Source: Bacillota bacterium
GTDB taxonomy: Bacteria; Bacillota; Limnochordia; DTU080; JAAYLA01
Assembly: GCA_012522135.1 (NCBI GenBank)
Contig: JAAYLA010000375.1
Location: 20,309-84,308 of the forward strand
Direction of reading: 5' to 3'
Length of the DNA: 64,000 bases
Shown here: piece after piece, positions 13,458-43,613 of the stretch
Position numbering within the stretch: the first letter of the stretch is position 1
Layout: each line of letters opens with the position of its first letter
Translations under genes and position numbers: made by a program
The notes under the pieces: generated by a model
What the model was told of the DNA's origin: nothing
Database searches by the model: none
What the model saw: the letters and a program-made list of their open reading frames with translations, nothing else

Positions 13458-13497
13458 TGCACCCTCCGTCAGATTCCTGTCTTAACGCTCCGGCCCG

Positions 13498-22347: not shown

Positions 22348-23055
22348 GTGGAGCAGAATCAGCCCGTTATCTCAACCGAGCGAAGCTCTGAAGAACGGGT
22401 CCGGGCCATTTTAGACGAGCTGGCCGCGCTCTATCCGGACGCGCGCTGCGAGTTGAATCATTCCAGTCCCTTTGAACTCCTCGTAGCCACGATCCTTTCC
22501 GCGCAAAGCACCGATGCGCGGGTCAACATGGTGACGGAACGCCTGTTCCGCAAGTACAACACTCCGGAAGACTTCGCCTCCCTCCGGCCGGACGACTTGG
22601 CCGAAGAGATCAAGGAACTCGGGCTTTACCGCAACAAAGCGCGACATATCGTAGAGGCGGCGCGCCGCATCGTAGAAGAGCACGATGGCCGTGTTCCGTC
22701 CGAACGCGAGGCGCTGGAAGCCCTGCCGGGCGTCGGACGCAAGACGGCCAACGTCATATTATCGAATGCATTTGGAATACCCGCCCTCGCGGTGGACACC
22801 CATGTGTTTCGTGTCTCACGCCGCTTGGGCCTGGCCTCGGGAAAAACCCCCGAACAAGTGGAACGCGAGCTGATGAACCGCATCCCGCGCCGGGAGTGGA
22901 CGATTACACATCACCGCCTCATCTACCACGGGCGCAGAATGTGCCATGCACGGCGTCCGGACTGTGCGTCATGCCCGCTGCGGCCGTACTGTGCGTACGC
23001 CGGCGGCAGCACAGCGGGCGATCCAGCCGAAGGCCTTAGCGCAGCGGGCGATTGA
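22348..23055 (+). CDS. nth: endonuclease III (DNA glycosylase/AP lyase, HhH-GPD, 4Fe-4S)
   Basis: LVATILSAQSTD...LPGVGRKTANVIL HhH-GPD motif and a C-terminal CxxxxxxCxxCxxxxxC cluster; GTG start after AAGGAGGAG. Confidence 0.9.
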   Translation: MEQNQPVISTERSSEERVRAILDELAALYPDARCELNHSSPFELLVATILSAQSTDARVNMVTERLFRKYNTPEDFASLRPDDLAEEIKELGLYRNKARHIVEAARRIVEEHDGRVPSEREALEALPGVGRKTANVILSNAFGIPALAVDTHVFRVSRRLGLASGKTPEQVERELMNRIPRREWTITHHRLIYHGRRMCHARRPDCASCPLRPYCAYAGGSTAGDPAEGLSAAGD

Positions 23056-23926: not shown

Positions 23927-25450
23927 TTAAAGCTCCAGATCTCCAAGTCCCGGTGCTTTGTGGAGCTCTGCGAAAAGCTCCACCAGCCCCTGATCGAACT
24001 TGCGACCGGCTTCTTTCGCCAGGTACTCCATCGCGCGTGGGTGCAGCCGATCATCCGGTTCACCGATTGTCGCTTGCCGTACGTACGCGTCTGCAATCGC
24101 CAAAATCCTCGCCGTGACCGGGATCTCGTCTCCGGCCAATCCGTCCGGATACCCCCTCCCGTCCACTCGCTCGTGCTGGTGACGGATGGCCTGCCTACAC
24201 TCATCCGAAACCGCCACCATCCGCAACACCCGTTCCGTCAACACCAGACTGCGATCGTCGTCGCCCTCGCCTCTCGCCTCGCCGGCCAAAAAATCGCCGC
24301 CCAACGTGACGCCGACGTTTGCCAGACGGGCCGCTTGGCTGAGGCTCTCTCGGGAAGCAGCGGGCAGGCCGTAAGCGTCGGCTAGAATAAGGGCGTATTT
24401 CGTGACGAGTTCCGCCTTGCCCCGCAGCTCGGGATAGAGACCTTCCAAAGTGTCCATCAGACCGAGCAACGTCGTCAGATTCCGCAGAATCTCACGGTCT
24501 TGCCACTCGATGCCTACCCGAGACGTCGTAGTTCCGTGCCGCGCGTGGATGACGTCGTCGAGTTCACGGGTAACGGCCGCCCATTCCCGCCACTGGTTGA
24601 GCTGCCCGTAGTACGTGCTGGCCCGTTGCAAATACCCGATCGCCCCCTGCCTGTCCCCGGTACGGGCGGCGACGGAGCCGAAGACCCGGCACAGGCGGGC
24701 GACCTCCCGCTTGTCCATAAAAGCTACGTTTTCCCACAAGGTCTGCAGCGCATTCCGGCAATACCTGATGGCCGCCGGCAGATCGCCCCGGTGGTAGTAC
24801 AGCCGGCCCAGCTCCGTCAACGTATAGACCGACCGCCCTACCTCGTTTAGCCGCTCCTTCATCGCCAGGGCCTGCTGCAAGAGCTTTTCACCTTGGTCGT
24901 AGTCGCCCGTTTCGATACAGATCAGGCCGAGGTTATTCAAGGCTCGACTGATGCCGTTCGCATCGCCGATGGCCTGGCAACGCTGCAGTGCGGCGTAATT
25001 GTGCCGGTACGCTTGTTCCCATTCGCCACGGGCTATGTACAGTTTGCCGAGTAACAGGTCGACTTCCCCGCGATACTCCGCGTCACCCTCCTGCTCCAAC
25101 ACCTGCCATACCTTCTGCGCGTAATAGAGCGATTCATCCACTACGCCCTTCATGTCGTAGGCCAACGCCAGATTGAAGAGCACCATCTTGCTGCGGTGCC
25201 TACCTACTGCGGCGCCGTGTTTTTCAATGAGCGAGAGGGCCTCCTCAAACTGCTTGAGCGCACGATCGGGCTCGTTCATATTGAGCCAGTTCACGCCCGA
25301 CAGCAGCAGGACTTGGACTTGATCCCGATAAAGCCCCTTCGCCTTGACCAGCTCGTAAAGTTGGCTTAACACGTCGCGCGCCGCGAGCGGCAGTCCTCCG
25401 TGAGTTTTCACGAGGAAGAGACTGTAGCTTCGCATGCGCTCCAAATTCAC
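23927..25450 (-). CDS. TPR-repeat protein with a C-terminal degenerate HD-GYP domain
   Basis: Multiple TPR-like repeats. The C-terminus has HQHERVDGRGYPDGLAGDEIP (the HHE...GYP signature), but the LHDIGK position reads LANVGV. The probable start is the GTG at 25450 after GGGGAG. Confidence 0.7.
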   Translation of the reverse strand: MNLERMRSYSLFLVKTHGGLPLAARDVLSQLYELVKAKGLYRDQVQVLLLSGVNWLNMNEPDRALKQFEEALSLIEKHGAAVGRHRSKMVLFNLALAYDMKGVVDESLYYAQKVWQVLEQEGDAEYRGEVDLLLGKLYIARGEWEQAYRHNYAALQRCQAIGDANGISRALNNLGLICIETGDYDQGEKLLQQALAMKERLNEVGRSVYTLTELGRLYYHRGDLPAAIRYCRNALQTLWENVAFMDKREVARLCRVFGSVAARTGDRQGAIGYLQRASTYYGQLNQWREWAAVTRELDDVIHARHGTTTSRVGIEWQDREILRNLTTLLGLMDTLEGLYPELRGKAELVTKYALILADAYGLPAASRESLSQAARLANVGVTLGGDFLAGEARGEGDDDRSLVLTERVLRMVAVSDECRQAIRHQHERVDGRGYPDGLAGDEIPVTARILAIADAYVRQATIGEPDDRLHPRAMEYLAKEAGRKFDQGLVELFAELHKAPGLGDLEL

Positions 25451-25765
25451 GACAGTCTCCCCTTTAAGCAAAAGGCTCGTTCCAAGCCGAAGCAAGGGCA
25501 TGCCAGGAACGAGCACTACGTCCTCATGCGGAGCGGCAACCAGACAGTCATAGCTGCGCGTGCGCGCGGCCTTAGACTCACGGCTTTGCGTCCCCGGCTT
25601 TCACCGGGTTTGCCCTTGACTTCTCCGTATTCAATTGAGTGCGCTCTTCGCGCGCAGAAGGATCACGCGTCATGAAGTTCGACCAAATGGCCCGGATTCC
25701 TGCTCAGTTTCGAAAAATTTCTTTAACGGACGAGGAATGCACACGGAATCAGAGAGCAGGCTCGT

Positions 25766-28328: not shown

Positions 28329-28931
28329 TCAGAAGCGCCACAGGCACCTGGAGGAGACCTCTTTGTAAAGCGGCACGACCCGGCGGAAAGTCTGCGGATC
28401 GCGTCGGGCAAGCGCGCTTTCGATTTCTTGGCGCAACGATATGCTGAGGAGCAGCAGGTCGATCTGCTCTTGAATGATCTCGCGTACCATAAACTCGAGG
28501 TACTCGCGGCCCAAAGTGCTCATGGGCAAGGCCGGATTGGGCTCGATGACCTCCTCGTACCAGTCGGGTATGGGACCCGCGAAGGAAAAGACGACATACA
28601 ACCTTCCCTTAAACTCACGCAAAGTCCGGATGGCCTCCAACGGCTCGCTGATGCAAACCGTCCGGTCGCGCCGGGTGTGGCGGATGAGCCGTCCGTTGAC
28701 GATGGTCACCTCTTCGCACTGGTGCGCTCCGAGCTCTAGTTCAAACCCCGTGCGCGGACTTCCGAGCTCGGAGATGAGCATGGTGTCGGGGAGAAAATCG
28801 CGATTGCGCACGAAAGTAAGGCGGCGCAAAAGATCCGGTTCCTCCAGCAAGAACTGCAACAGGAACTTGCTCATGGGATGTTTATGTGGCAAACGGCTGA
28901 ATCGTCGTACCGCTTCGCGTTTGGCTTTCAT
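28329..28931 (-). CDS. hypothetical protein (no recognisable domain)
   Basis: 200 aa counted from the ATG after a GGGGTGA RBS; it lies upstream of lepB on the same strand and divergent from imuB. Confidence 0.4.
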   Translation of the reverse strand: MKAKREAVRRFSRLPHKHPMSKFLLQFLLEEPDLLRRLTFVRNRDFLPDTMLISELGSPRTGFELELGAHQCEEVTIVNGRLIRHTRRDRTVCISEPLEAIRTLREFKGRLYVVFSFAGPIPDWYEEVIEPNPALPMSTLGREYLEFMVREIIQEQIDLLLLSISLRQEIESALARRDPQTFRRVVPLYKEVSSRCLWRF

Positions 28932-29205
28932 GATCGTCACCCCGGGATCGTGAAAACCGTGGTTCCGGTGCACAAACAGGTTAGCCTTTAACTCACTTAT
29001 ATGTGACGTCCCTGCAGGTTCATGCCCTTTTCCCACCGGCTCGCCCGCAGGACGGTGGTTGCGTCTATTCTATAGGACAAAAGACGTTCGCTCCATAGTA
29101 CTTTCGGCCCTTTTCTCCTCGTACCAAATGACGTGTCCCAGGGAGGTTTCTCTCCCTTCCACACGTGCCGCGCGCGTATGCCAGTTTTTTCAAGCTCCTC
29201 TCCCC

Positions 29206-29233
29206 TTGATCCCGAACGCCTGTGCGGTATAAT
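29206..29233 (+). promoter_or_regulatory. promoter TTGATC-16 nt-TATAAT upstream of imuB-dnaE2
   Basis: -35 TTGATC at 29206-29211 and -10 TATAAT at 29228-29233. A degenerate LexA box, CGAACGCCTGTGCG at 29213-29226, fills the spacer. Confidence 0.5.
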
Positions 29234-29255
29234 ATGGATTGCAAACCTCTGTTCG

Positions 29256-29269
29256 GGAACAGGTGTTCG
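29256..29269 (+). promoter_or_regulatory. LexA (Cheo-type) operator gGAACAGGTGTTCG, GAAC-N4-GTTC
   Basis: Exact GAAC-N4-GTTC core between the -10 box and the imuB ATG at 29272. Confidence 0.6.
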
Positions 29270-29271
29270 CC

Positions 29272-30324
29272 ATGCAGACCCGCATTCTCCATCTTGTCTG
29301 GCAGCCAAAGCAAACGACGACCGCCGCTTCCCTCTGGAACGACATCCTTTTGCAATGCGCGGCGCAATCGCCTTACGTCGAACCTTGTCATCCGTACGAA
29401 GCCTTTGTAGATCTGACGGACGCCTGCCGGGTCGAAAACCTCCTCTGCGCGCTGAACGCTCTGCAGAAAGAAGGTGAGTTCGGCACTTTCATCCTTTCAC
29501 TGGCGCCGAACAAGTTCATCGCGCGCACGGTATCGCTGCTCGCCCTCGAGAATGCGCTGCCGCCGTCGCTCCATGTCCACCAAAGTGGGCTTGCTGTCTA
29601 TACAGAAACCGCTCCCTCACAGGCAGAGGCACTTCTCGCTTCCCTTTCGGTGCGCTGCCTCTGGTGCATCGATCGGCATGTGCGCGAGCGCCTCGTCGCT
29701 TTGGGAATAACGAAAATCGGCGAATTGCGTCGCGTGCCGCTTCCGTGGCTCGTGCAGACTTTCGGCGCCGCAACGGGGCAAACCCTGTTCGCGCTGGCAA
29801 ACGGTCGCGACGACTCGCCGGTACAGCCCCTCTACCCGCCGCGCACCGTCGAAGTATATTGGGATTTTCCGCCTGAGCAAACCGCTTACGACATGGTCGT
29901 CTTCGACCACGTATTGCGCAGTCTGACGCACAAGCTCGCTGGGCAACTGCATACACTCGGCTTGGCTTGTTCCTCTCTTTTGCTGCGTGTCGAGTCTCCC
30001 GCCGGTGTCGTAGGGCAGGCAGGTAGACTGGACGTTCCCTCTTGCACTTCCGAGGGCCTGGCGCCGCACGTTGAACGCCTCTTTCGAAAAATACCCCTAG
30101 ACGATCGCCTTTACCGGCTACACCTTATTGCAGGCGACCTCAGCCTGCCCGAAAGCAAACAAACTAGTTTTATAAGCAGCCTCATGCCGCCGTCCGCCGC
30201 GCGGGTAGACAAGGTGTTAGCCGGGGTCCGGAAACGCTTCGGAGCACAAGCCATCCAGTGTGCAGGAACGCTCAAAAGGCCAAGGCGCGAGCAAATGCGG
30301 GCGCTCTGGCACGGTACGTCTTGA
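29272..30324 (+). CDS. imuB: ImuB-like inactive Y-family polymerase (mutasome accessory subunit)
   Basis: Y-family fold. The N-terminus reads RILHLVWQPKQ where active polymerases have ILHVDMDAFFA (catalytic Asp lost, ImuB-like LW.DWP). A little-finger-like GRDDSPVQPLYPPRTVEVYWDF is present. It sits immediately upstream of dnaE2. Confidence 0.7.
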   Translation: MQTRILHLVWQPKQTTTAASLWNDILLQCAAQSPYVEPCHPYEAFVDLTDACRVENLLCALNALQKEGEFGTFILSLAPNKFIARTVSLLALENALPPSLHVHQSGLAVYTETAPSQAEALLASLSVRCLWCIDRHVRERLVALGITKIGELRRVPLPWLVQTFGAATGQTLFALANGRDDSPVQPLYPPRTVEVYWDFPPEQTAYDMVVFDHVLRSLTHKLAGQLHTLGLACSSLLLRVESPAGVVGQAGRLDVPSCTSEGLAPHVERLFRKIPLDDRLYRLHLIAGDLSLPESKQTSFISSLMPPSAARVDKVLAGVRKRFGAQAIQCAGTLKRPRREQMRALWHGTS

Positions 30325-30380
30325 ACAAGCCTGTGTACTGCGTTTCTTTTCCTGTTCTGCCGGATGGAAGGAGGAACCCC

Positions 30381-33300
30381 GTGTTTCCCCACTTGCACGT
30401 CCACTCACCTTTCTCGTTTCTTGACGGTGCCAGCAGTATCGAACGGCTTATTCAAACGGCACAAGAACAAGGAGCGAAGGTGCTCGCCCTCACCGATCAC
30501 AACAGCGTCTCGGGAATGGCCCGCTTTGCCGCGGCCGCCCGCGTGGCGGGCATCACGCCCGTCGCCGGAGCCGAAGTCACTCTCGAAGACGGCTACCACC
30601 TCGTCCTCCTGGCCAAAGAACCGGCCGGATACGCCAACTTGTGCCGCCTCCTTACCGCCGCCTACGCCCACGGAGGCCGTGAGGACCCGCGCCTGCCCTA
30701 CTCGGTGCTCCGCCGGTATCACGCAGGTCTTTTCGCCCTTTCGGGTTGCCGGCGCGGCAAAATTCCCTTCAGCATTCTGGAAGGCCGGGATAAGGAAGCT
30801 TTGGCCGCGGCCGAACAGCTCCTTTCCGTCTTTGGCAAGAGCAACTTCGCCCTTGAAATGGACGCGAGCGCGCTGCCCCGCGCCGAATATCTTAACCGGC
30901 GCTTGAATGATCTGGCCGAACATTTGCGCATTCCGATCGTCGCCACCGCCGACGTGCATTACGCTACAAAGGACGACTTTTACCTGCACGATCTGCTCAC
31001 ATGCGTCCGGACCGGGACCACCCTATCGGACGTCCATCCCGAAAGGCGACTGAACGCGGAAAACTACCTGCAGCCGCGCCGCGTCCTGGAACAGCGGTTG
31101 GCCGCTTATCCGCAGGCAATAAAAAACGCCTTTCGCATCGCGGAAATGTGCGCCGATGCGTTTCCGAACGGTCAACCCCAACTTCCCGAATTCCCGGTAC
31201 CGTCCGGCCACACGCCCGCCGAGTACTTGCGCTACCTCACGTACCAAGGAGCTGAAAAGCGCTACGGCCGCATCACACGGGTCATTCGCGAACGCCTCGA
31301 GCACGAGCTGCATATTATTACCAAGCTCGGCGTTGAATCGTATTTTCTTATCGTATGGGATCTCGTGCGCTACGCCCGCCGGCGCGGCATCCGCCACGCA
31401 GGGCGCGGTTCGGCGGCCGATTCCGCCGTCGCCTACGCCCTGCACATCACCAATGTCGACGCCATAGAGCGCGGCTTGCTTTTCGAACGCTTTCTTAGCC
31501 TGGAACGCTCCCAGATGCCCGACATCGACGTCGACTTCGACGCCCGCTACCGCGACGAGATCGCCGATTACGTCTTCCGGCGCTACGGTGCCGAGCACGT
31601 CGCCTCGGTCTGCACGTTCAGCACCTATCGCGCCCGCTCTGCTTTGCGCGACCTGGGCAAAGCCATGGGTTTTTCCCCGGATGAACTCGATGCGCTGGCC
31701 AAATCCGTACCCCACATCCCCGCCGACGGCGTGCGCAAGGCCATTTCGCGCGTTCCCGAGCTGCGCGACAGCGGCCTGCCCTTTGAACGCTACGAAACGC
31801 TCTTTGCCTTTTGCGAGCAGGTGGCGGGTTTCCCCCGGCACATCGGCACTCACCTAGGGGGACTTGTGATCAGCAAAGATCCTATTACCACGCTCTCGCC
31901 CGTCCAGACGTCGGCCAAAGGCGCTGCCATCATCCAGTTCGACAAGGATGACATCGAAGCGCTGGGCCTTATCAAGATCGATTTGCTCTCCCTGCGCACC
32001 CTCTCTGCGCTCGAAGACGCGGTGGTCACCATCAACAGACAAAATGCGCGCCACGGCCGGCCCGCCGTCGATCCCGAAAACATTCCGCAAGGTGACGAAG
32101 CCACTTACGAGATGCTCCGCGCGGGCGAAACGATCGGCGTCTTCCAGCTCGAAAGCCCAGCCCAAAGGGGCCTGCAGACACGCTTGGAAGCCAATAAGAT
32201 GGAAGATCTCGTCGCCAGCGTCGCGCTCATACGTCCTGGCCCCATCCAAGGCCAGATGGTCGAGCCGTTCCTGGCCCGCCGCAGCGGCTTGGAACCCGTC
32301 ACCTACTTGCATCCGGCCCTGCGCCCGATCCTCGAAAAAACGTACGGCGTGGTGTTGTACCAGGAGCAGGTGATCGAAATCGCTACCGTTATCGCGGGGT
32401 TTACGGCAGGCGAAGCCGACAAATTGCGCAAGACAATGACACACTATCGCTCAGAACGGGAAATGGAGCGCATCGGCGAACACTTCATCGCCCGCGCCAT
32501 GGGCCGTGGCATCGACCGTCAAACCGCCGAGACGATCTTCTCGTACATCCGCGGGTACGCCGGGTACGGTTTCTGCGAAGCCCACGCGGCCGCCTTCGCC
32601 GACACGGCTTACAAAACGGCTTATCTTATACGCCATTACCCCGAGCACTTCTACGCGGCTATTTTGAACCACTACCCCATGGGCTTTTACCCTCCCAACA
32701 CCATTTGCCTTGCGGCCAGAAGGCGCGGGGTCACCATTTTACCGCCCGACATCAACGCGAGTGAAGACGTATGCACCGCAGCCGACGGCAAGATCCGCAT
32801 CGGCCTCAAGTTCGTCCGTACCATGGAATCAGCCGTCTTGGAGCAAATTTTGGCGGACCGCCGGCGGGGCGGCCCCTACACGTCTTTACCGAACTTCCTA
32901 AGCCGCGTCCGCATCCCTAAAGACACCTTGGAACAGCTCATCTTGGGCGGTTGCTTCGACACCTTCTCGCCCAACCGACGGGCACTCCTCTGGCAAGTAC
33001 AGGCTTACCTGGGCTGGTACGCTCCCCAAGGTGCCAGAAGGCAGCAAGGCCCCGGCCGTCCCGTGCAAAGCAGCCTGGTCCAGGTGGGTCTGCAGGTCAG
33101 GGAAGACTCCGGCACGCCGATCGACGACTTCCCGCCCTACGAGCGCCATGTATACGAGTACGCGGCCCTCGGCTTCAACCCGGGAGAGCACTTCATGAGC
33201 CATTTTCGCAAGCACCTTCTCGCCTGCGGCGCGGACGACACTCGCAGCATACGCAGGCGCCCCCGCGGGAAGTGGGCGAAGATCGCAGGGCTTGTGATCC

Positions 33301-33524
33301 GCCCCCACAAACCGCCGACGAAAAGCGGACGGACCGTCGTCTACTTTTCTCTGGAAGACGAGTTCGGACAAGTCGACGTCACAGCTTTCGAAAACATTTA
33401 CCAAAAGTACGGCCGGCTCATCTACCACGCGCCGCTCCTTTGGGTCGAAGGTCCCGTAGAATGGCGCGGCAGGGGCGTCAGCGTCATCGCGCGACGCATC
33501 GCGGCCTTCCGTTCACCGACCTGA
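30381..33524 (+). CDS. dnaE2: error-prone DNA polymerase DnaE2 (ImuC)
   Basis: GTG start after GGAAGGAGGAA; N-terminal PHP domain FPHLHVHSPFSFLDGAS; ~1047 aa without a tau-binding tail; downstream of imuB and the LexA boxes. Confidence 0.85.
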   Translation: MFPHLHVHSPFSFLDGASSIERLIQTAQEQGAKVLALTDHNSVSGMARFAAAARVAGITPVAGAEVTLEDGYHLVLLAKEPAGYANLCRLLTAAYAHGGREDPRLPYSVLRRYHAGLFALSGCRRGKIPFSILEGRDKEALAAAEQLLSVFGKSNFALEMDASALPRAEYLNRRLNDLAEHLRIPIVATADVHYATKDDFYLHDLLTCVRTGTTLSDVHPERRLNAENYLQPRRVLEQRLAAYPQAIKNAFRIAEMCADAFPNGQPQLPEFPVPSGHTPAEYLRYLTYQGAEKRYGRITRVIRERLEHELHIITKLGVESYFLIVWDLVRYARRRGIRHAGRGSAADSAVAYALHITNVDAIERGLLFERFLSLERSQMPDIDVDFDARYRDEIADYVFRRYGAEHVASVCTFSTYRARSALRDLGKAMGFSPDELDALAKSVPHIPADGVRKAISRVPELRDSGLPFERYETLFAFCEQVAGFPRHIGTHLGGLVISKDPITTLSPVQTSAKGAAIIQFDKDDIEALGLIKIDLLSLRTLSALEDAVVTINRQNARHGRPAVDPENIPQGDEATYEMLRAGETIGVFQLESPAQRGLQTRLEANKMEDLVASVALIRPGPIQGQMVEPFLARRSGLEPVTYLHPALRPILEKTYGVVLYQEQVIEIATVIAGFTAGEADKLRKTMTHYRSEREMERIGEHFIARAMGRGIDRQTAETIFSYIRGYAGYGFCEAHAAAFADTAYKTAYLIRHYPEHFYAAILNHYPMGFYPPNTICLAARRRGVTILPPDINASEDVCTAADGKIRIGLKFVRTMESAVLEQILADRRRGGPYTSLPNFLSRVRIPKDTLEQLILGGCFDTFSPNRRALLWQVQAYLGWYAPQGARRQQGPGRPVQSSLVQVGLQVREDSGTPIDDFPPYERHVYEYAALGFNPGEHFMSHFRKHLLACGADDTRSIRRRPRGKWAKIAGLVIRPHKPPTKSGRTVVYFSLEDEFGQVDVTAFENIYQKYGRLIYHAPLLWVEGPVEWRGRGVSVIARRIAAFRSPT

Positions 33525-34508: not shown

Positions 34509-34769
34509 ATGCATCCTTGGCCCGAGTTGACCCGGCGCATCGAGCTCGACAACCGCGGACTTGAGCCCCCGGAGCCGATGGTGCGCATCTTGACCGCCCT
34601 GAAACATTTAGGGGACGGCGAGTACATTTTGGCCCACAACGATCGTGAGCCCATGTTTCTCTATCCACGGCTCGACGAGATGGGTTACGTGTACCGGGCC
34701 GAGCTGCAGGAGGACGGTTCTTGCCTCATTGCCATCCGCAAACCTCATGGCGGGGAGACAAGACCGTGA
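34509..34769 (+). CDS. DUF2249 domain protein (paralog a)
   Basis: LDNRGLEPPEPMVRILTALKHLGDGEYILAHNDREPMFLYPRLDEMGY matches the DUF2249 pattern; GAGGGAGGAA RBS. Confidence 0.7.
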   Translation: MHPWPELTRRIELDNRGLEPPEPMVRILTALKHLGDGEYILAHNDREPMFLYPRLDEMGYVYRAELQEDGSCLIAIRKPHGGETRP

Positions 34770-36040
34770 ACTTGCCCGGACTGGACGTAGAAAGCAGACC
34801 CCGGCCGGCGGTGCCGTCCCTGTACATCCAGACGGGCCTGCTTTTTCTCATCGGCGCGGCCGCGGTAATCGCTCTGCACCCTGGAGCGCTCATGGCCTCG
34901 CCCCGCCACAACCCGGTGACGCTCGTGGTCACCCACATGCTGGTTCTGGGCTTCGGCACGCTCATCACCTTCGGGGCCCTCGAGCAAATGGTACCGGTCA
35001 TCACAGGGCGCAAGGTCACCTCGGAACGCTACAGCCGCACGGCTTATGCCCTGTTTGTTCCCGGACTCCTGCTGCAGCTCGCGGGCTTTGCCGCGTGGCA
35101 GCCCTATCTGATCGCGGCCGGCGGAACCCTCATCACCTTGGGTACGGCGCTCTTTACGCTGCCTTACGTTCCGACCCTGTGGGAGCGCCTGCGGAGCGAC
35201 TTGACTGCTCCGTTCATCTTCTCGTCCCTCATCTACGTCAATTTGACCGTGTTCCTGGGTGTCGCGTCGGCCGTGCAGCTCAAAACCCTCTGGTGGCCGT
35301 GGCTGTTTTGGCACGGGCTGCCCTTCCACCTCATACTGGGAGGCCTCGGCTGGTTCACGCAGATTATCATCGGGGTGTCCTACAAGCTCATTCCTATGTT
35401 CATTACTACGACCGGCGCCGGTGATCTCCATGTGCGGCGCGTCTGCGCCTCGTTCAACATAGGCCTTCTGCTTGCCCTGCTCTCGGCCGCAGGCAGCTGG
35501 ACGGCCGGCGCCGCGGCAGGGCTGACCGTGGTAGGTGTGACATGTGCCGTGTACGCTTGGGATGTGCGCGGGATGGTCAAACGACGCATCCGCCGGCGCA
35601 TCGGGGCGGGAATGAAGCAAAGCCTGGTCGCCGTGTTGTACTTGATCCTTGCGGCTGCTCTGTCCGCCCTGCTCCTGGCCCGGGCCCTGCCCATAGACGG
35701 CCTGTCCGCAGACCGGTGGGTCGTCGTCGCCGGCCTGCTCTTCGCCTGCGGCTGGGTGGGGAGCGTGATCCTTGGCATGCTGTCCAAAATCGTGCCCATG
35801 CTCGTCTGGCTCGATCTGTTTGCCGGCCGCGTGGGTGAGCGGGATACGCCTACCATAGCCCAGTTGATCGACGAACGAGCCGTCGGGTTGGGAGGAATCG
35901 GCTACCACGCAGGTCTTCTTACCCTTGCCGTCGCTTTCGCCGCGGGACACCCGGTCGCTGCCACATGGGCGGCCGCATTGTTTCTCCTCGGCGTGGTCGT
36001 CCTGGCCGGCACGCTGATCGGAGTCTGGTCGGCGCGCTGA
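34766..36040 (+). CDS. NnrS-like 12-TM membrane protein (paralog 1)
   Basis: The GTG start overlaps the DUF2249a stop (GTGA). ~12 TM helices with conserved His; paralogous to 36726..37979 (NPVTLVVTHMLVLGFGTLITFGALEQMVPV vs HPLILGVVHATVLGWGVSVALGSLQQMAPV). The NnrS family assignment is tentative. Confidence 0.55.
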   Translation: MNLPGLDVESRPRPAVPSLYIQTGLLFLIGAAAVIALHPGALMASPRHNPVTLVVTHMLVLGFGTLITFGALEQMVPVITGRKVTSERYSRTAYALFVPGLLLQLAGFAAWQPYLIAAGGTLITLGTALFTLPYVPTLWERLRSDLTAPFIFSSLIYVNLTVFLGVASAVQLKTLWWPWLFWHGLPFHLILGGLGWFTQIIIGVSYKLIPMFITTTGAGDLHVRRVCASFNIGLLLALLSAAGSWTAGAAAGLTVVGVTCAVYAWDVRGMVKRRIRRRIGAGMKQSLVAVLYLILAAALSALLLARALPIDGLSADRWVVVAGLLFACGWVGSVILGMLSKIVPMLVWLDLFAGRVGERDTPTIAQLIDERAVGLGGIGYHAGLLTLAVAFAAGHPVAATWAAALFLLGVVVLAGTLIGVWSAR

Positions 36041-36725: not shown

Positions 36726-37979
36726 TCAGCGCATCAAAGTCCGCAACAAGTTGCCGGTGGCGACCAGGGCGCCGAGGCTCATCAGCACCGCATACCCTGT
36801 GACGTTGAACCCGAAAGGCGCGACCGCCAAGAGCCCGATCAAACCGGCATTATAAAGCGCAAGTCCGAGCCAGGCCGCGCCCTCGTGCACCATGTGACGA
36901 AAAGAGGGGACGCCTGGCTCGTCCGTTCGGTGCCAGTATTTATTGTGCCAGACGAAAAAGGGCAGGATGCGGTGAAGGTATCCTAGAATGGCGCAGCTGA
37001 GCCACCCGAAAAGACCGGCCAGACCCAACCACGCTACGAACCGGCCGTTTGCGCCCAGCCACGGAAAGGCGATAGCCCCCGCCGCGACCGCAGCTCCATA
37101 CAGGTGGGACAGCCGCACGTAGGTGACCATCGGATGCATCCGGACAGTCGGCCTGGGGGCAAAAACGGCCCGGGTGTCCCATAAAAAGAGAAGGACCGAC
37201 GCCGCGACCACGACGCGGCCCGCCTGCGCAAGCCAAGGAAGGCCCGCACCGCCGCCGAAGGCTAAGGCCCCGATTCCCGCGTGGAGCATCACGACGACGG
37301 GCCGGTCGAAGTTGGGAGCGAACTTCTTCGGCGTCAGACCGAAAAAGGGCAAAAGGTGGTACGAGATGCCCAGAACGAGCATGGCGAACCAGCCCACGAG
37401 CCCCGCCGCGGTGTGAGCGGCAAAGGCAGCTTGCCATCCGGATCCCAGCCAATTCGCAGCAAGGTTGACGGCGAGCGCGGCGCCGAGGAGCACCGTCACG
37501 GCCAGGTAGAAAAGGGCACTCTTTACGAAGGGCCGGATGCGCGACGCCGCTGGACTGCCGCCCGGAGCCATCGTGCGGACCACATTGACCAGGGCCGTCC
37601 CGACCGCCAGGAGCACGAGAAGGCTGCCGAGCACGAGGAGAACCGGGGCAAAGCGCACCATCCCCCACACCAGACAGGCGACTCCTATGCCGAAGCCGTA
37701 GGCACCGGCCGCGGCCAGGTGTTCACTGTAAAGCCCCGTACCGAAGACGACGGGAGCCATCTGCTGCAGCGAGCCGAGCGCTACGCTGACGCCCCACCCG
37801 AGCACCGTCGCGTGCACCACGCCCAGGATGAGCGGATGCCGGTACAGCCCCGACTCGTACGGAACGGCGGCGAAGGGTAAGAGCACCGCGACCCCCGCAA
37901 AGGCTAGGAGCCCGAACGCAAAGTAAGGGCCTAATGCGAACAGGGGGACGAGATTGTCGCGGGTGACCCGGATGCCCAC
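36726..37979 (-). CDS. NnrS-like 12-TM membrane protein (paralog 2)
   Basis: The GTG start sits directly after the TAA of the upstream regulator gene; paralog of 34766..36040. Confidence 0.55.
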   Translation of the reverse strand: MGIRVTRDNLVPLFALGPYFAFGLLAFAGVAVLLPFAAVPYESGLYRHPLILGVVHATVLGWGVSVALGSLQQMAPVVFGTGLYSEHLAAAGAYGFGIGVACLVWGMVRFAPVLLVLGSLLVLLAVGTALVNVVRTMAPGGSPAASRIRPFVKSALFYLAVTVLLGAALAVNLAANWLGSGWQAAFAAHTAAGLVGWFAMLVLGISYHLLPFFGLTPKKFAPNFDRPVVVMLHAGIGALAFGGGAGLPWLAQAGRVVVAASVLLFLWDTRAVFAPRPTVRMHPMVTYVRLSHLYGAAVAAGAIAFPWLGANGRFVAWLGLAGLFGWLSCAILGYLHRILPFFVWHNKYWHRTDEPGVPSFRHMVHEGAAWLGLALYNAGLIGLLAVAPFGFNVTGYAVLMSLGALVATGNLLRTLMR

Positions 37980-38788: not shown

Positions 38789-38919
38789 AGCGCGGTGAGA
38801 GAATTCGCATCGTTGCCTACGCCGGCGGTCACTGATCCTGCGCCGTGCCTTTGATACGCTGGAACGGGAAGACGAAGCAGGAGGAAACAATCGCTCGCGG
38901 GCCCCGGGAGGTGCGTTGT

Positions 38920-40290
38920 ATGGAACGTTTCGGTCGCAACACCGTTTGGCTCACCTTGGTCATAGCAGGCCTCATACTAATCGTCGGACTGCTTGACCGC
39001 GGAGCGGGCACACACAGCGCGCCTACCGGTTCTCAGGCCGCAGTGCCCGCGGGCGATGAAATCGTAGTAGAACTGGCGATGATGCGATTCGAACCGAGCC
39101 GCATACAAGTTCCCCCCGGCACCACCATTCGCTTCGTCAATCGCGACCCCATGTTGCACAACGTAGTGCATGCGCGGCCGGACACCCTCGGCAAAGGGCC
39201 TGAAAAGTTCCGCTCGCCGCAGCTCGGTCCGGGAGACAGCTGGACCCTCACCCTGACGGTGGAGGGCGTGTACGATATTCTGTGCGACATCGCGGGCCAC
39301 TTCCTCGCCGGCATGGTCGGCCAAATTGTGGTGACCCAGGATACGGCTGCCCGGGAGGCCGAGCCCGCCGGAACCGCCGGGCAGCCCGTCGCCCGCGATC
39401 CCCGGGACCTGCCCGGCCCCATTGATCGGGATGAGCCCACGGTCGTTCGTTTCGACCTGCGTACCGTGGAAGTGGAAGGCCAGCTCGCGGAAGGCATCAC
39501 TTTCACCTACTGGACGTACAACGGTACCGTGCCCGGTCCCCTGCTGCGCGTGCGCCAGGGCGATACGGTCGAGCTGTACCTTACGAATGATGCGTCGAGC
39601 ACCCAACCCCATTCGATCGATCTGCACGCCGTCACGGGTCCCGGAGGCGGCGCCGCCGTGACACAGGTCGCCCCCGGCGAGACGAAGGCTTTCCGCTTCA
39701 AGGCCCTGCATCCCGGCGTCTACGTATACCATTGCGCGACGCCGCACATCCCGACCCACATCGCCATGGGCATGTACGGGCTAATCGTCGTCGAGCCGCC
39801 CGAGGGACTTGTGCCCGTCGACCACGAGTTTTACGTGATGCAGGGCGAAGTCTACGCCGATCTGCGCCCCGGTTCCCAAGGCCACGCTGCGCACGATCCG
39901 GCGGCGATGTGGGATGAGCGACCGAATTTCGTCGTGTTCAACGGCCAGTTCCAAGCTCTCACCGGAGACCGCGCCATGCGGGTCAACGTCGGCGACACGG
40001 TGCGCATCTTCTTCGGTGTCGGTGGGCCGAACTTGCCGTCGTCGCTGCACTTGATCGGTGAAGTATTCGACCGGCTCCATCCGGAAGGCGCGGCAGAACC
40101 CGCAACCCACGTACAGACCACGCTCGTACCCGCCGGCGGCGCCACGTGGGTTGAGTTCACCGTCGACGTTCCGGGAACCTACACGCTCGTCGACCACTCG
40201 CTCAGCCGGGCCGTCGACAAGGGAGCCTTGGCCACGATAGAGGCCGTAGGCCCCGGCGCACCGGACATTTTCGCCGCGCTCGACGACTGA
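38920..40290 (+). CDS. nirK: copper-containing nitrite reductase NirK with an N-terminal cupredoxin domain
   Basis: ATG after GGGAGGTG. The N-terminal cupredoxin carries H..C....H....M ligands (HNVV...CDIAGHFLAGM). The NirK core has HSIDLH (T1/T2 His and catalytic Asp) and HCATPHIPTHIAMGMYG. Confidence 0.85.
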   Translation: MERFGRNTVWLTLVIAGLILIVGLLDRGAGTHSAPTGSQAAVPAGDEIVVELAMMRFEPSRIQVPPGTTIRFVNRDPMLHNVVHARPDTLGKGPEKFRSPQLGPGDSWTLTLTVEGVYDILCDIAGHFLAGMVGQIVVTQDTAAREAEPAGTAGQPVARDPRDLPGPIDRDEPTVVRFDLRTVEVEGQLAEGITFTYWTYNGTVPGPLLRVRQGDTVELYLTNDASSTQPHSIDLHAVTGPGGGAAVTQVAPGETKAFRFKALHPGVYVYHCATPHIPTHIAMGMYGLIVVEPPEGLVPVDHEFYVMQGEVYADLRPGSQGHAAHDPAAMWDERPNFVVFNGQFQALTGDRAMRVNVGDTVRIFFGVGGPNLPSSLHLIGEVFDRLHPEGAAEPATHVQTTLVPAGGATWVEFTVDVPGTYTLVDHSLSRAVDKGALATIEAVGPGAPDIFAALDD

Positions 40291-40412
40291 ACAGCACTTC
40301 GGACGGACGGGCCTTCGGAGCACCGGCAGGAAACAGGTCCAGCGCACAAGAATAACAGGTGGGACGGGCCCGTCAGGTCGGCCTGCAGCTTGAGGAGGTA
40401 CGCCCCCGTCCG

Positions 40413-43400
40413 ATGAGTTTGCAACGTGTGTCCGTGCACCGTCCCGTCGCGCTCTCCATGTGCGTTCTCGCCGCCTTGGTCATCGGCCTGATCTCCCTTG
40501 ATCGCATCGGCATCGATCTTTTGCCCAATTTGGAGTATCCTACGCTGGCCGTTGTGACCGTTTACCCGAATGCGGATGCCGAGAGCGTCGAAAGCGACGT
40601 CACGCTGCCTATTGAACGCACTTTATCGACCGTATCGGGACTGCGGCAGCTTGAGTCGCTGAGCATGGAGAACGCGTCGCTCGTCATGGCCACCTTCGAG
40701 TGGGGCACCGACTTAGGCGACGCCTTCGAGGAAATCAACTCGCTGCTCAGCGTGGCGAGCCTTCTGCTTCCATCCGATGTCCAGCGCCCGATCGTCGTCA
40801 AGCTCGATCCGTCCCAAGTGCCCGTTCTCAATATCGCGGTGACCGGCGAGACGGACCTTGTTGCGTTGACGGGCCGCGTAGAAAGGGAAATCGTGCCGGT
40901 CATCGAGCGCGTTCCTGGCGTCGCCCAAGTCAGTGTAGCCGGCGGCGCGTACCCGCAGATCAGCGTCTACTACGACACCCAGGCACTCCGGGAAAGGGCG
41001 CGGCTCAATCCCCTGGATATCCAGGCGATGCTGCAATACCAAAACGCCGTCGTACCCGCGGGTACACTTGAGGTACGTCCGGAAGAACTGGGCCTTGAGG
41101 CGGGTGACGTACGCCGGTTCCCGCTGCGCGTCGGTGCCAACTTGGAAAGCATCGACGACCTGCGCAGCCTCGTCATCTCCGTCGAACAGCCCGCGACGGG
41201 AGGCGACGCGTTCGGCCTGTCGGCGCTGCTTCCGCCCGACGTCATCCGCCTCGGCGATGTGGCGCAGATCGTCGAAGAAGTGCGGCGCGTGGAAGGGCAC
41301 ACGCGGGTCAACGGCGAGCCGGCCGTTGTCCTGCGCGTGCTGAAAGAGAGCGAAGCGAACACCGTCGAAGTCTCCCGGGGGGTCCTCGCGGCGGTCGCTG
41401 CCTTGACCGGGCAACTTGCGGGCGATCTAACCCTTGAGATCGTCACCGACCAGGCGCAATTCATCAACGAGTCCATCGACAATTTGTCCTGGAGCGCCCT
41501 TGTCGGTGCCGTCCTCGCCGTCCTGGTCCTCACCCTTTTCCTGCGTTCGTGGCGCGATATCGTCGTCATCGCGGTGGCGATCCCGCTGGCGTTTGCCGTC
41601 GCCGTCACCTTGCTTCATTTCGGCGGTTACACCCTCAACTTGATGACCCTGGGCGGACTGGCCATTGCCGTAGGAATGCTCGTCGACAATGCGATCGTCG
41701 TGCTCGAGAACATTTTCCGCTTGCGGGGCCTTGGCCTGTCGCCTAAGGAGGCGGCCGTCCAGGGGGCGAGCGAGATGGCGCCGGCGATCGTCGCGTCGAC
41801 GCTTACGACGGTAGCCGTATTCGTCCCGCTTATCTTCATGCGCAGTTTAGCCGGGTATCTGTTCAAGGAGTTGTCCCTGGCCGTCGTCTGCGCGCTGGCG
41901 GCGTCGCTGCTCGTTGCTCTCACCGTCGTTCCGATGCTAGCGGCCTACCTCCCCGATCGGTCGAGGAGCACCGCGCGGGCAGCCACTTCCCGGCCGGCGG
42001 AGGGCGTCCATCAAGGGATCGCAGATCGGTTGACCCCCCACTACGCCCGGGCGATTCGGAAGGTGCTCCGTCGTCCTTGGCTTGGGGTCGTGATCGCGGG
42101 CGCCTTCACCATAAGCCTGGTGTTCCTCCCCAGGCTCCTCGACGTCGGTTTCGTGCCCGAGATGGACGGCAGCCTCGTGACAATCGACATTCAGCTCCCG
42201 CCGGGCACGCCCCTGCACACCACGGACAAGGTCGTGCGCGACGTCGAAGCCTATCTGGAAGCCCTGCCCGAAGTCGCTCTGCTGTCGGTGCAGGTGGGAA
42301 ACCAAGGCGGCACGGATTATCTCAGCATCGTACAGGAGATGCCGGTCAACCAGGCCCGGGTTCACGCGCTCCTTGTCCCGCCCGGCGAGCGCTCTCGCTC
42401 GTCCCATGAACTGGCCCGGATCATCGGCAGCGAACTGCCCCTGCCCCCGGAGGCCGCCGTGCGGATCAGCGCCGACCGGGCCGTCGATGCACTCGGCGAT
42501 GATTTCGCGAGCGGGCTGACGCTGGAGATCCTCGGCCCGGAATGGGATGTACTCCAGTCCGTCGCGGGCCGCATCGCCGAAGAGCTGAGACGGACCCCCG
42601 GCTTCGTCAACGTCACTTCCACCGCAGAAGATGTGAACCAAGTGCTCTTTTTTGAAGTAGATAGGGTGCAGGCCGGAAGAGCGTTGCTGCCGGCCGGGCA
42701 GGTCGGCCTGACGGTCCGCCTGGCGCTGACGGGTCTTCAAGCGACTACGCTGCACGTCGACGGGCGGTCGGTGCCGGTAGTCATCAAGCCCAGTCCGAGC
42801 GAGACCGAAAATCTGGAGGCCTTGCAGTCGCTGCGGGTGTGGAATTTGCAAAGCGACGCGACAGGCATCCCGCAGGCGGCCCGCTTCGAAGCGATCACCA
42901 CGGCGGACGCCCCGGTCATCACCGATGCGCCGAGAACCATTCGGCACCTCGATCGACAACGGGTCGCGACGGTGAAAGCCCAGCTCGACGGCGTTGACCT
43001 CGGCAAGGCGCGGCGGCTGGCCGAGCAGATCGTGGCTGCTACGGATCTTCCAGCAGGTTACGAGGTGCGAATGGCAGGAATTCATAGGACGCTGGATGAA
43101 TCAATTAAGGAGTTGGTTCTTGCGCTAGGGCTTGCGGTGCTGTTCGTGTACATGGTGATGGCAGCCCAGTTCGAGTCCTTGCGGTATCCGGGCATCATCA
43201 TGATTACCGTGCCCCTGTCGGCGGCGGGAGGCTTCTTCGCCTTGTGGTTGACCGGCCAGCAGCTGAACGTACCGGCCTTCCTCGGACTCCTCCTGCTCGT
43301 CGGCATTGCGGTGAACAACGGCATCGTTCTGGTCGACACGATCGGCCGCTTCCGGCGTTCGTTGCCCCTGGAAGAGGCGATCGTCGAAGCGTGCCGCGTG

Positions 43401-43613
43401 CGGCTCCGGCCCATTTTGATGACCGCGCTGACAACGATTCTGGGGCTGGTTCCGCTCGCCCTCGGGTGGGGAGAAGGCACCGAAATTCAGGTTCCCTTGG
43501 CCCTGGCAGCGCTGGGCGGGTTGATCTCGGGAACGCTACTCACCCTTTTTGTGGTGCCGGCCTTTTACCGGCTCTTCTCTGGCACCATTGAGACGCCCGC
43601 ACGGGCCGATTGA
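40413..43613 (+). CDS. RND-family efflux transporter (AcrB/HAE-like)
   Basis: ~1060 aa, 12 TM plus two large periplasmic loops; the start is ambiguous (40359 GTG-type or the 40413 ATG). Confidence 0.8.
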   Translation: MSLQRVSVHRPVALSMCVLAALVIGLISLDRIGIDLLPNLEYPTLAVVTVYPNADAESVESDVTLPIERTLSTVSGLRQLESLSMENASLVMATFEWGTDLGDAFEEINSLLSVASLLLPSDVQRPIVVKLDPSQVPVLNIAVTGETDLVALTGRVEREIVPVIERVPGVAQVSVAGGAYPQISVYYDTQALRERARLNPLDIQAMLQYQNAVVPAGTLEVRPEELGLEAGDVRRFPLRVGANLESIDDLRSLVISVEQPATGGDAFGLSALLPPDVIRLGDVAQIVEEVRRVEGHTRVNGEPAVVLRVLKESEANTVEVSRGVLAAVAALTGQLAGDLTLEIVTDQAQFINESIDNLSWSALVGAVLAVLVLTLFLRSWRDIVVIAVAIPLAFAVAVTLLHFGGYTLNLMTLGGLAIAVGMLVDNAIVVLENIFRLRGLGLSPKEAAVQGASEMAPAIVASTLTTVAVFVPLIFMRSLAGYLFKELSLAVVCALAASLLVALTVVPMLAAYLPDRSRSTARAATSRPAEGVHQGIADRLTPHYARAIRKVLRRPWLGVVIAGAFTISLVFLPRLLDVGFVPEMDGSLVTIDIQLPPGTPLHTTDKVVRDVEAYLEALPEVALLSVQVGNQGGTDYLSIVQEMPVNQARVHALLVPPGERSRSSHELARIIGSELPLPPEAAVRISADRAVDALGDDFASGLTLEILGPEWDVLQSVAGRIAEELRRTPGFVNVTSTAEDVNQVLFFEVDRVQAGRALLPAGQVGLTVRLALTGLQATTLHVDGRSVPVVIKPSPSETENLEALQSLRVWNLQSDATGIPQAARFEAITTADAPVITDAPRTIRHLDRQRVATVKAQLDGVDLGKARRLAEQIVAATDLPAGYEVRMAGIHRTLDESIKELVLALGLAVLFVYMVMAAQFESLRYPGIIMITVPLSAAGGFFALWLTGQQLNVPAFLGLLLLVGIAVNNGIVLVDTIGRFRRSLPLEEAIVEACRVRLRPILMTALTTILGLVPLALGWGEGTEIQVPLALAALGGLISGTLLTLFVVPAFYRLFSGTIETPARAD

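Follow-up and report, generated by a model that had tools for sequence, protein, structure and literature searches.

A probable LexA-repressed two-gene translesion-synthesis operon pairing an inactive Y-family protein with a DnaE2-type polymerase in a Limnochordia-like member of the Bacillota

The 64 000-nucleotide stretch of DNA analysed here (the window, to which all coordinates refer) belongs to an uncultured bacterium of the Bacillota that resembles the Limnochordia (the SecY encoded in it tracks the Limnochordia, at 68-71% identity), and its positions 29206-33524 hold an operon of simple layout: one promoter, then a gene for an inactive Y-family polymerase homologue (inactive PolY, hereafter iPolY), then a gene for a DnaE-type DNA polymerase, all on the plus strand. 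The iPolY gene (29272-30324) starts with ATG and its translation begins MQTRILHLVWQP; the 351 amino acids given for it in an earlier reading of the letters alone (the sequence-only reading) are in fact 350 codons plus the stop codon. A frameshifted or longer N-terminus was ruled out by a stop codon just upstream of 29239, by the promoter and operators that lie there and by the length of the orthologues, 350-360 amino acids. The polymerase gene (30381-33524) starts with GTG and encodes 1047 amino acids, which is also the orthologue length; the mechanically called open reading frame (ORF) runs from 30258, the true start being the GTG at 30381, six bases after the Shine-Dalgarno sequence GGAAGGAGG (30366-30374). 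Only 56 nucleotides separate the two genes, and another gene would not fit between them. The G+C content of the operon (0.609) matches that of the window (0.624).

The promoter is of the sigma-70 type (29206-29233), with the -35 hexamer TTGATC at 29206-29211, a 16-nucleotide spacer and the -10 hexamer TATAAT at 29228-29233, just as the sequence-only reading had described it. It is the sole sigma-70-like site on either strand between 28900 and 29400, with a match at 10 of 12 positions (shuffled sequences give 0.2), both hexamers are invariant across four aligned orthologous loci, and equivalent promoters were found in the other loci checked. Transcription is predicted to start near 29240. The sequence CGAAC-N4-GTTCG is the Gram-positive LexA consensus (Cheo 1991; Au 2005). 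Scored against it with one mismatch allowed (13/14), the promoter region carries three predicted LexA boxes of the Cheo type, to which no strand is assigned and each of which matches at 13 of 14 positions: O1 (CGAACGCCTGTGCG / CGAACgcctGTGCG, 29213-29226) within the spacer between the hexamers; O2 (CAAACCTCTGTTCG / CAAACctctGTTCG, 29242-29255) downstream of the -10 hexamer, at about +2 to +15; and O3 (GGAACAGGTGTTCG / GGAACaggtGTTCG, 29256-29269), which abuts O2 without a gap, encloses the weak Shine-Dalgarno sequence AGGTG of the iPolY gene and ends at about +29, two nucleotides before the start codon. The sequence-only reading had counted two boxes, O1 and O3; both are there, and O2 had been overlooked. 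The perfect GAAC-N4-GTTC that it had seen between the -10 hexamer and the start codon is the core of O3 (GAACAGGTGTTC, 29257-29268). Matches at the 13/14 level number five in the window, three of them within 57 bp at the iPolY promoter, a remarkable concentration. A perfect GAAC-N4-GTTC occurs twice for 1.19 expected, and a single occurrence is thus unremarkable; the second one (22537-22548), 190 bp into the endonuclease III gene nth (22348-23055, plus strand), was rejected as an operator because of its mismatched flanks and its frequency within chance.

Orthologous loci (numbered L001 onwards) keep these boxes in a characteristic manner. In L004-L007 the half-sites of O1 are invariant and the four central bases differ (GCCT, GCAC, GGAT). 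O2 is kept in every clade member, again with a variable centre (CTCT, TCCT, TTTT, CTTT, ATAC), and O3 is kept in L001 and L004-L007, with one additional mismatch in each of L014 and L015. Fixed half-sites around drifting spacers are the pattern expected of protein-binding palindromes. In distant iPolY operons, Cheo boxes are found at the place equivalent to O3 (CGAACATATGTTTC; CGAACAGTTGTTTG together with CGAATATGTGTTTG; CGAACACACATTCC). The promoter of the iPolY gene in Geochorda subterranea has a box in the spacer, at the O1 position (CGAACATGTATTCG), and CGAACATATGTTTC after the -10 hexamer; that of L012 has two tandem boxes and that of L013 has one.

The first protein of the operon retains only part of a Y-family polymerase. 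Pfam finds the thumb (IMS_HHH_1) and the little finger (IMS_C) and nothing else, and DinB profiles align from about position 124 only. Overall, the protein consists of a remnant of the palm, the thumb, the little finger, a position for the clamp motif, a RecA-NT-like motif and a C-terminal helix. When it is aligned with E. coli DinB and a solved Pol IV (7yll), the first palm strand is seen to be kept (RILHLVW), and the positions of Asp8 and Asp10 are non-acidic (Val9 and Gln11 by motif register). Tyr42-Glu43 (29395-29400) stand at the place of the catalytic Asp103-Glu104 of DinB, SLDEAY having become HPYEAF, and the aspartate of position 103 is lost in all members of the iPolY family. The loss of the catalytic aspartates, which the sequence-only reading had noted, is thus borne out by the alignments: the match to DinB is not one with intact carboxylates. 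That reading missed a second defect, a short linker of residues 11-18 (29302-29325) that replaces about 62 residues of the fingers domain (11-72 in E. coli DinB). The same gap is found in the homologues P0002-P0006, P0015 and P0021 and in DinB2 of Streptomyces coelicolor, which gives the fingerless architecture a precedent, and is absent from the iPolYs of Geochorda, Sphaerobacter and Nitrospira.

Three features mark the C-terminal part, the first two of them in line with PMC6511836 and PMC11791113. At the column of the beta-clamp motif (QxxLF in relatives, QLVLGL in E. coli DinB) stands QTSFI (residues 297-301, 30160-30174), whose Gln297 is nearly invariant and which may, from its position, bind the clamp. 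It is followed by a RecA-NT-like motif, also overlooked before (PSAARVDKVLAGVRKRFGAQAIQC / PSAARVDKVLAGVRKRFGAQAI, residues 307-330, 30190-30261): in an hhalign comparison of the family's C-termini with RecA N-termini, residues 307-328 fall on RecA 3-24 with 82.5% probability (E ~1e-5), which is the detection level reported in the study that defined the motif (PMC6511836), and in an AlphaFold2 model a helix (308-323) covers it. The protein ends with the helix RREQMRALWHG (residues 338-348, 30283-30315), part of an RPRRExMRA motif that begins at residue 336 and in which R338, R339, E340, M342, R343 and A344 are invariant; this helix is common to the iPolYs that accompany DnaE2X polymerases and absent from those resembling S. 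coelicolor DinB2 (scDinB2) or gbDinB2. The end comes some 20 residues past the RecA-NT-like motif, and there is no ImuB-C domain. The ImuB-like identity proposed earlier therefore holds as far as a catalytically dead Y-family homologue is concerned, and does not hold in the strict sense: the protein is an inactive PolY rather than ImuB proper, and it groups with the iPolYs found alongside DnaE2X.

This reduced protein has been maintained. Frame and length (350-360 amino acids) are kept among orthologues down to 29% identity, and the ratio of non-synonymous to synonymous substitution rates (dN/dS) against orthologues is 0.13-0.30, in the range of purifying selection, the values being rough with dS near saturation; with the conserved motifs, this ruled out a pseudogene. 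The AlphaFold2 model, built with 71 homologues, has a mean predicted local distance difference test score (pLDDT) of 92.6, and its best matches in the PDB by Foldseek are all Y-family polymerases. The form is also rare. When 1.84 billion representative proteins were searched exhaustively with HMMER, only four clusters of the short fingerless form came up, after which scores fall steeply to dead PolYs of 390-420 amino acids with fingers, and a profile scan of genome contigs with the family alignment added only two metagenome-assembled genomes (MAGs) of Dehalococcoidia, at 27-29% identity.

The second gene encodes a polymerase with PHP, polymerase core, fingers, (HhH)2 and OB domains. It aligns with Taq Pol III alpha through the catalytic motifs PDIDVDF (31518-31538) and KIDLL (31974-31994), and all the catalytic aspartates of the polymerase site are kept. 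The alpha subunits of Taq and E. coli align only to about residues 1116 of 1220 and 1068 of 1160, i.e. the alignments stop roughly 100 residues before the ends of these proteins, which indicates that the C-terminal tau-binding domain is absent. A simple pattern search of the polymerase found no clamp motif of the QxxLF type. With NCBIfam, the best model is 'error-prone DNA polymerase' (915 bits), followed by DnaE (875 bits) and the B. subtilis-type model (678 bits), the first two scores both lying below the cut-offs of their models (939 bits for the best one). The class was assessed by BLAST of the first 400 residues against the references in the supplement of PMC12926913: identity is 50.8% to DnaE2X of Kyrpidia and 47.5% to that of Alicyclobacillus, against 31-39% to four DnaE2A and 29-36% to four DnaE2B references. 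By this measure the polymerase appears closest to the published DnaE2X group. Its nearest database homologues, at 53-58% identity, are in MAGs of Bacillota, Betaproteobacteria, Chitinophagales and Ignavibacteriales, a spread that does not follow taxonomy; set against a SecY that does follow it, such scatter is typical of an accessory gene. The dN/dS ratio is 0.06-0.16, indicating purifying selection.

Taken together, these data make it probable that the locus is a LexA-repressed bicistronic operon for translesion synthesis, of the type that combines an inactive PolY with a DnaE2, descended from the DnaE2X-iPolY-ImuB-C-RecA systems and reduced to two genes. A protein lacking the catalytic aspartates and the fingers domain cannot polymerise, and since palm, thumb, little finger, clamp-motif position and RecA-NT-like motif are kept, the iPolY is most likely an adaptor. 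In undamaged cells, LexA dimers on the three predicted operators would block both the binding of RNA polymerase and its escape from the promoter. Activation of RecA by DNA damage would lead to self-cleavage of LexA and to a single mRNA for both genes. By analogy with the models in PMC12926913, the iPolY would then keep its partner polymerase at the beta clamp by means of QTSFI and thumb contacts, and would bind RecA in place of ImuA, RecA being the likely third partner, while the DnaE2-type enzyme would carry out the synthesis and extend across lesions.

Several observations weigh against this interpretation. O1 is missing from two lineages (L001 and L014) and is therefore the least conserved of the three boxes. 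Scans of the window ORFs found no lexA in the 64 kb, and recA is not in the window either, so that the regulator and the third partner are both assumed. QTSFI is a weak version of the QxxLF clamp motif. The conserved RRExMRA helix is seen elsewhere in iPolYs that have an ImuB-C partner, and the absence of ImuB-C is established for 64 kb rather than for a whole genome; an ImuB-C partner could still exist elsewhere in the genome. Finally, the metal-site signature of the PHP domain is intact, which is atypical of DnaE2.

The most serious competitor, to which we give a low yet appreciable probability, is that the system still has three parts and that its two-gene look is only apparent, ImuB-C (DUF6504) or, less likely, ImuA being encoded elsewhere. 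The closest characterised group, DnaE2X, is always accompanied by ImuB-C (PMC12926913), and published models assign to ImuB-C the largest contact with the PHP domain of DnaE2. The RRExMRA helix, typical of iPolYs associated with ImuB-C, is invariant here. Moreover, relatives retain the third gene. In Geochorda (Limnochordia; L011), the signal peptidase and ReoY genes are followed by genes for an iPolY of 421 amino acids with fingers, a DUF6504 protein of 87 amino acids and a DnaE2 of 1075 amino acids, and an ImuB-C (DUF6504) gene is likewise found in two other DnaE2X-like loci: in L012, where a tRNA-synthetase gene lies between iPolY-DUF6504 and the polymerase gene, and in L013, where the iPolY gene is 4 kb from DUF6504-dnaE2; such partial dispersal indicates that the module can be split. 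DUF6504 matches the C-terminal domain of fused ImuB-like proteins with an hhalign probability of 98%, published ImuB-C proteins match DUF6504 with E-values of 1e-15 to 1e-4, and by these profile matches DUF6504 is a standalone ImuB-C; solved structures and literature on DUF6504 yielded nothing on this identity. On the other side, tblastn found no ImuB-C in the window or in the five syntenic contigs (L001, L004-L007; E > 0.2), with three DUF6504 proteins and five ImuB-C sequences from the literature as queries. The six lineages with a fingerless iPolY (29-70% identical to the one in the window) all have the polymerase gene directly downstream with nothing between, L014 and L015 leaving no room for an ImuB-C gene there, and iPolY-DnaE2 systems that lack ImuB-C exist in Streptomyces, Nitrospira and Citrifermentans. 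As to ImuA, the sequence-only reading had left two options, a two-gene cassette or an ImuA encoded elsewhere. It had rightly seen no imuA nearby: there is none among the neighbours, no imuA-like coding sequence in the window and no RecA-like domain among the larger window ORFs scanned. The first option is the one favoured here, given the six lineages with adjacent genes. The second is unlikely, the RecA-NT-like motif being present and published surveys finding no ImuA where a genome has DnaE2X or DnaE2B (PMC6511836, PMC12926913). The missing piece is most likely ImuB-C rather than ImuA, and the most economical history is one in which a DnaE2X-iPolY-ImuB-C ancestor lost the fingers of its iPolY and its cis-encoded ImuB-C.

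Another possibility, to which we give rather little credence, is that ImuB-C has been discarded genome-wide and that the fingerless iPolY and a polymerase with working PHP proofreading form a two-protein SOS polymerase that could serve damage tolerance with relative accuracy instead of acting as a mutator, the RRExMRA helix binding the polymerase or RecA directly; such an enzyme would call into question that DnaE2 means error-prone synthesis. In the PHP domain, the nine metal ligands read HHDHEHCDH, which is the canonical signature and 'active' as defined in PMC12926913, whereas DnaE2 PHP sites are usually substituted (PMC12926913) and those of the Kyrpidia and Alicyclobacillus DnaE2X are disrupted. 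The DnaE2-type error-prone polymerase of the sequence-only reading thus stands as regards type, and its error-prone nature had been assumed: with a PHP site that looks intact, the mutagenic nature of the synthesis is uncertain. In the 120 closest clusters the ligands read HHDHEHCNH in 100. Ligand 8 (residue 191, 30951-30953) is Asp in the window, in P0155 and in Geochorda, and Asn in P0154 (87% identical), P0156 and most other homologues; to judge from these residues, a proofreading-type site may flicker on and off within the DnaE2X-like group.

Much less probable is that the polymerase is an ordinary DnaE (the DnaE1/DnaE3 partner of PolC), SOS-inducible in the manner of B. subtilis dnaE and not a specialised DnaE2. 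The polymerase and PHP active sites look intact, most homologues go under the NCBI name 'DNA polymerase III subunit alpha', the scores of the error-prone and DnaE models are close and both below cut-off, and no second dnaE was seen in the window. But the nearest published sequences are DnaE2X, the C-terminal domain is missing, the DnaE3 model of the B. subtilis type scores far lower, the homologues are scattered across taxa whereas SecY tracks the Limnochordia, and the gene is always linked to a dead PolY, behind multiple predicted LexA operators. It is slightly less probable still that the GAAC/GTTC repeats serve a regulator other than LexA or form an RNA hairpin in the 5' untranslated region. 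O2 and O3 do form a 14-nucleotide inverted repeat that includes the Shine-Dalgarno sequence, and lexA is not visible in the window. However, in stability the predicted hairpins do not exceed those of shuffled sequences (z -0.8 to +1.5), and they differ between orthologues, by which a hairpin hiding the Shine-Dalgarno sequence was ruled out; the motif equals the Gram-positive consensus, half-sites are conserved where spacers are not, and canonical boxes such as CGAACATATGTTTC occur in distant relatives. Least probable of all, the 350-residue gene would be the decaying remnant of a dinB, without a function of its own and with the polymerase alone mattering, for which speak the loss of the catalytic residues and of about 62 others and the mere four clusters of the short form, and against which speak the conserved frame and length, the dN/dS, the confident predicted fold, the invariant C-terminal motifs and a promoter and operators that serve the iPolY gene first.

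The surroundings of the operon are those of a core chromosome rather than of a mobile element, as judged from addAB, nuo genes and the ribosomal-protein block secY-adk-map-rpoA in the window, which also contains nth and thyA-folA. The genes addB and addA (9534-16977, minus strand; 1159 and 1307 amino acids) lie 12 kb upstream of the operon. The upstream neighbours are ReoY, signal peptidase, ThyA and dihydrofolate reductase genes. The divergent gene next to the operon (28329-28931, minus strand) encodes a protein of 200 amino acids in which the sequence-only reading had rightly seen nothing RecA-like; it belongs to the ReoY/UPF0302 family, stands outside the system and is a synteny marker common to Geochorda. 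On the other side, the end of the polymerase gene is 4 nucleotides from a convergent short-chain dehydrogenase gene, beyond which come a DUF2249 cluster and Crp and cupredoxin genes.

Some further observations concern these flanks. The intergenic region of reoY and the iPolY gene contains a block of some 45 nucleotides (29058-29105, GTTGCGTCTATTCTATAGGACAAAAGACGTTCGCTCCATAGTACTTT), nearly unchanged in L004-L007 and partly kept in L001; this block holds the imperfect inverted repeat CTATAGGA...TCCATAG, no sigma-70 site and no match to an Rfam family were found in it, and it may be an operator or leader of the divergent reoY gene. L001, the most divergent syntenic relative, has at its positions 3707-4477 a gene for a metallohydrolase of the metallo-beta-lactamase (MBL) fold, 256 amino acids long, between reoY and the iPolY promoter (best NCBIfam model 'GPMC system MBL fold', 330 bits, below cut-off). 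Its position upstream of the LexA boxes makes membership of the SOS operon improbable, and it was rejected as the missing partner because the LexA promoter is downstream of it and because it is absent from the window and from other lineages. Further downstream in the window, the ORFs 34721-36040 (plus strand, 439 amino acids) and 36726-37979 (minus strand, 417 amino acids) have no Pfam or NCBIfam match. In syntenic loci the former sits in a conserved cluster of DUF2249, unknown, FeS_assembly_P and DUF2249 genes that adjoins a Crp/Fnr regulator and a cupredoxin/multicopper protein, and the cluster may be related to redox or nitric oxide. A second iPolY-DnaE pair at 38845-43613 was ruled out, the genes there being those of a cupredoxin/multicopper protein and an AcrB-type transporter. 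A cyclic di-GMP-I riboswitch (Rfam RF01051, 71.8 bits, E = 4e-12; 25532-25624, minus strand) is located directly 5' of a gene for a protein of 529 amino acids with TPR and HD_5 (HD-GYP-like) domains (23927-25516, minus strand), and would be the cyclic di-GMP-sensing leader of a putative cyclic di-GMP phosphodiesterase gene.

How does the operon compare with known systems? DnaE2 modules without ImuA have already been listed by Timinskas and Venclovas, namely iPolY-ImuB-C-DnaE2X-RecA and iPolY-DnaE2B-RecA (PMC6511836; PMC12926913). Systems with DnaE2X or DnaE2B occur in genomes without imuA or imuB, and RecA has been proposed to bind the RecA-NT motif (PMC6511836, PMC12926913). Members of the first type are Kyrpidia tusciae (ADG05750/ADG05749/ADG05748), Alicyclobacillus, Sphaerobacter, Dehalogenimonas and Deinococcus deserti (PMC6511836, PMC12926913). 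With them the operon shares the type of its polymerase (51% identity to Kyrpidia and 47.5% to Alicyclobacillus over the first 400 residues), a dead PolY with a RecA-NT-like motif and a terminal RRExM helix, and the lack of imuA, and the locus is syntenic with the three-gene version of Geochorda. It differs from them in that no ImuB-C (DUF6504) gene is found in the operon or within the 64 kb, in its fingerless iPolY, and in a canonical PHP site where those of Kyrpidia and Alicyclobacillus are disrupted. The second type is represented by DinB2 (CAB50953) and DnaE2 (CAB50954) of S. coelicolor and, with gbDinB2-like proteins, by Nitrospira and Citrifermentans (PMC12926913). Here the likeness is one of composition, i.e. 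a dead PolY with RecA-NT and a DnaE2 without ImuB-C or ImuA, and extends to S. coelicolor DinB2 lacking the same fingers segment. In contrast, the identity of the polymerase is 29-36% to DnaE2B and 51% to DnaE2X, which places it outside the DnaE2B lineage; the iPolY has only a remote similarity to scDinB2 (24% identity, E = 2.5e-5) and an additional C-terminal helix that scDinB2 and gbDinB2 do not have. The locus probably works in the manner of these modules but fits neither definition: it has a polymerase of the DnaE2X type without the associated ImuB-C gene, and the two-gene composition of the DnaE2B systems without a DnaE2B polymerase.

Nor is it a canonical imuA-imuB-dnaE2 cassette; it is a reduced form of a known SOS translesion module. 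The mutasome of ImuA (ImuA'), ImuB and DnaE2 in M. tuberculosis, P. aeruginosa and Caulobacter has an adaptor that carries clamp-binding and RecA-NT motifs and recruits the synthesising DnaE2 (PMC10421592, PMC11791113). The operon follows the same logic of a LexA-controlled dead Y-family adaptor with a DnaE2, and has in common with it the Y-family fold without catalytic carboxylates. Unlike the mutasome, it has no ImuA in the window and lacks the ImuB-C beta-barrel still present in the ImuBs that are reduced the most, its polymerase is not a DnaE2A, and its operator is of the Gram-positive Cheo type. With DnaE2 in general, the polymerase shares the PHP, polymerase core, HhH and OB domains and the lack of a C-terminal tau-binding domain, its unsubstituted PHP metal site setting it apart. 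As for regulation, the predicted boxes resemble those of the B. subtilis LexA (DinR) regulon (Cheo et al. 1991; Au et al. 2005) in operator sequence and in placement over the promoter, and there, too, a promoter may have several boxes. In contrast to that regulon, all three boxes here match at 13/14, and two of them abut and reach within two bases of the start codon.

In several pathogens, DnaE2 modules are behind damage-induced mutation and drug resistance, and how few components suffice for a working module is debated. The locus offers a natural 'minimal' version, with an adaptor reduced to palm, thumb, little finger and the clamp and RecA motifs, no ImuA, no ImuB-C in cis and a PHP site that looks intact. 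With it, the DnaE2X lineage reaches Limnochordia-like Bacillota, and a clean predicted LexA promoter with three operators becomes available. If ImuB-C is encoded elsewhere, it is one more member of a catalogued family. If the two proteins suffice, it would show which contacts are dispensable for the recruitment of DnaE2, and it would allow a test of whether an intact PHP site means a non-mutagenic system.

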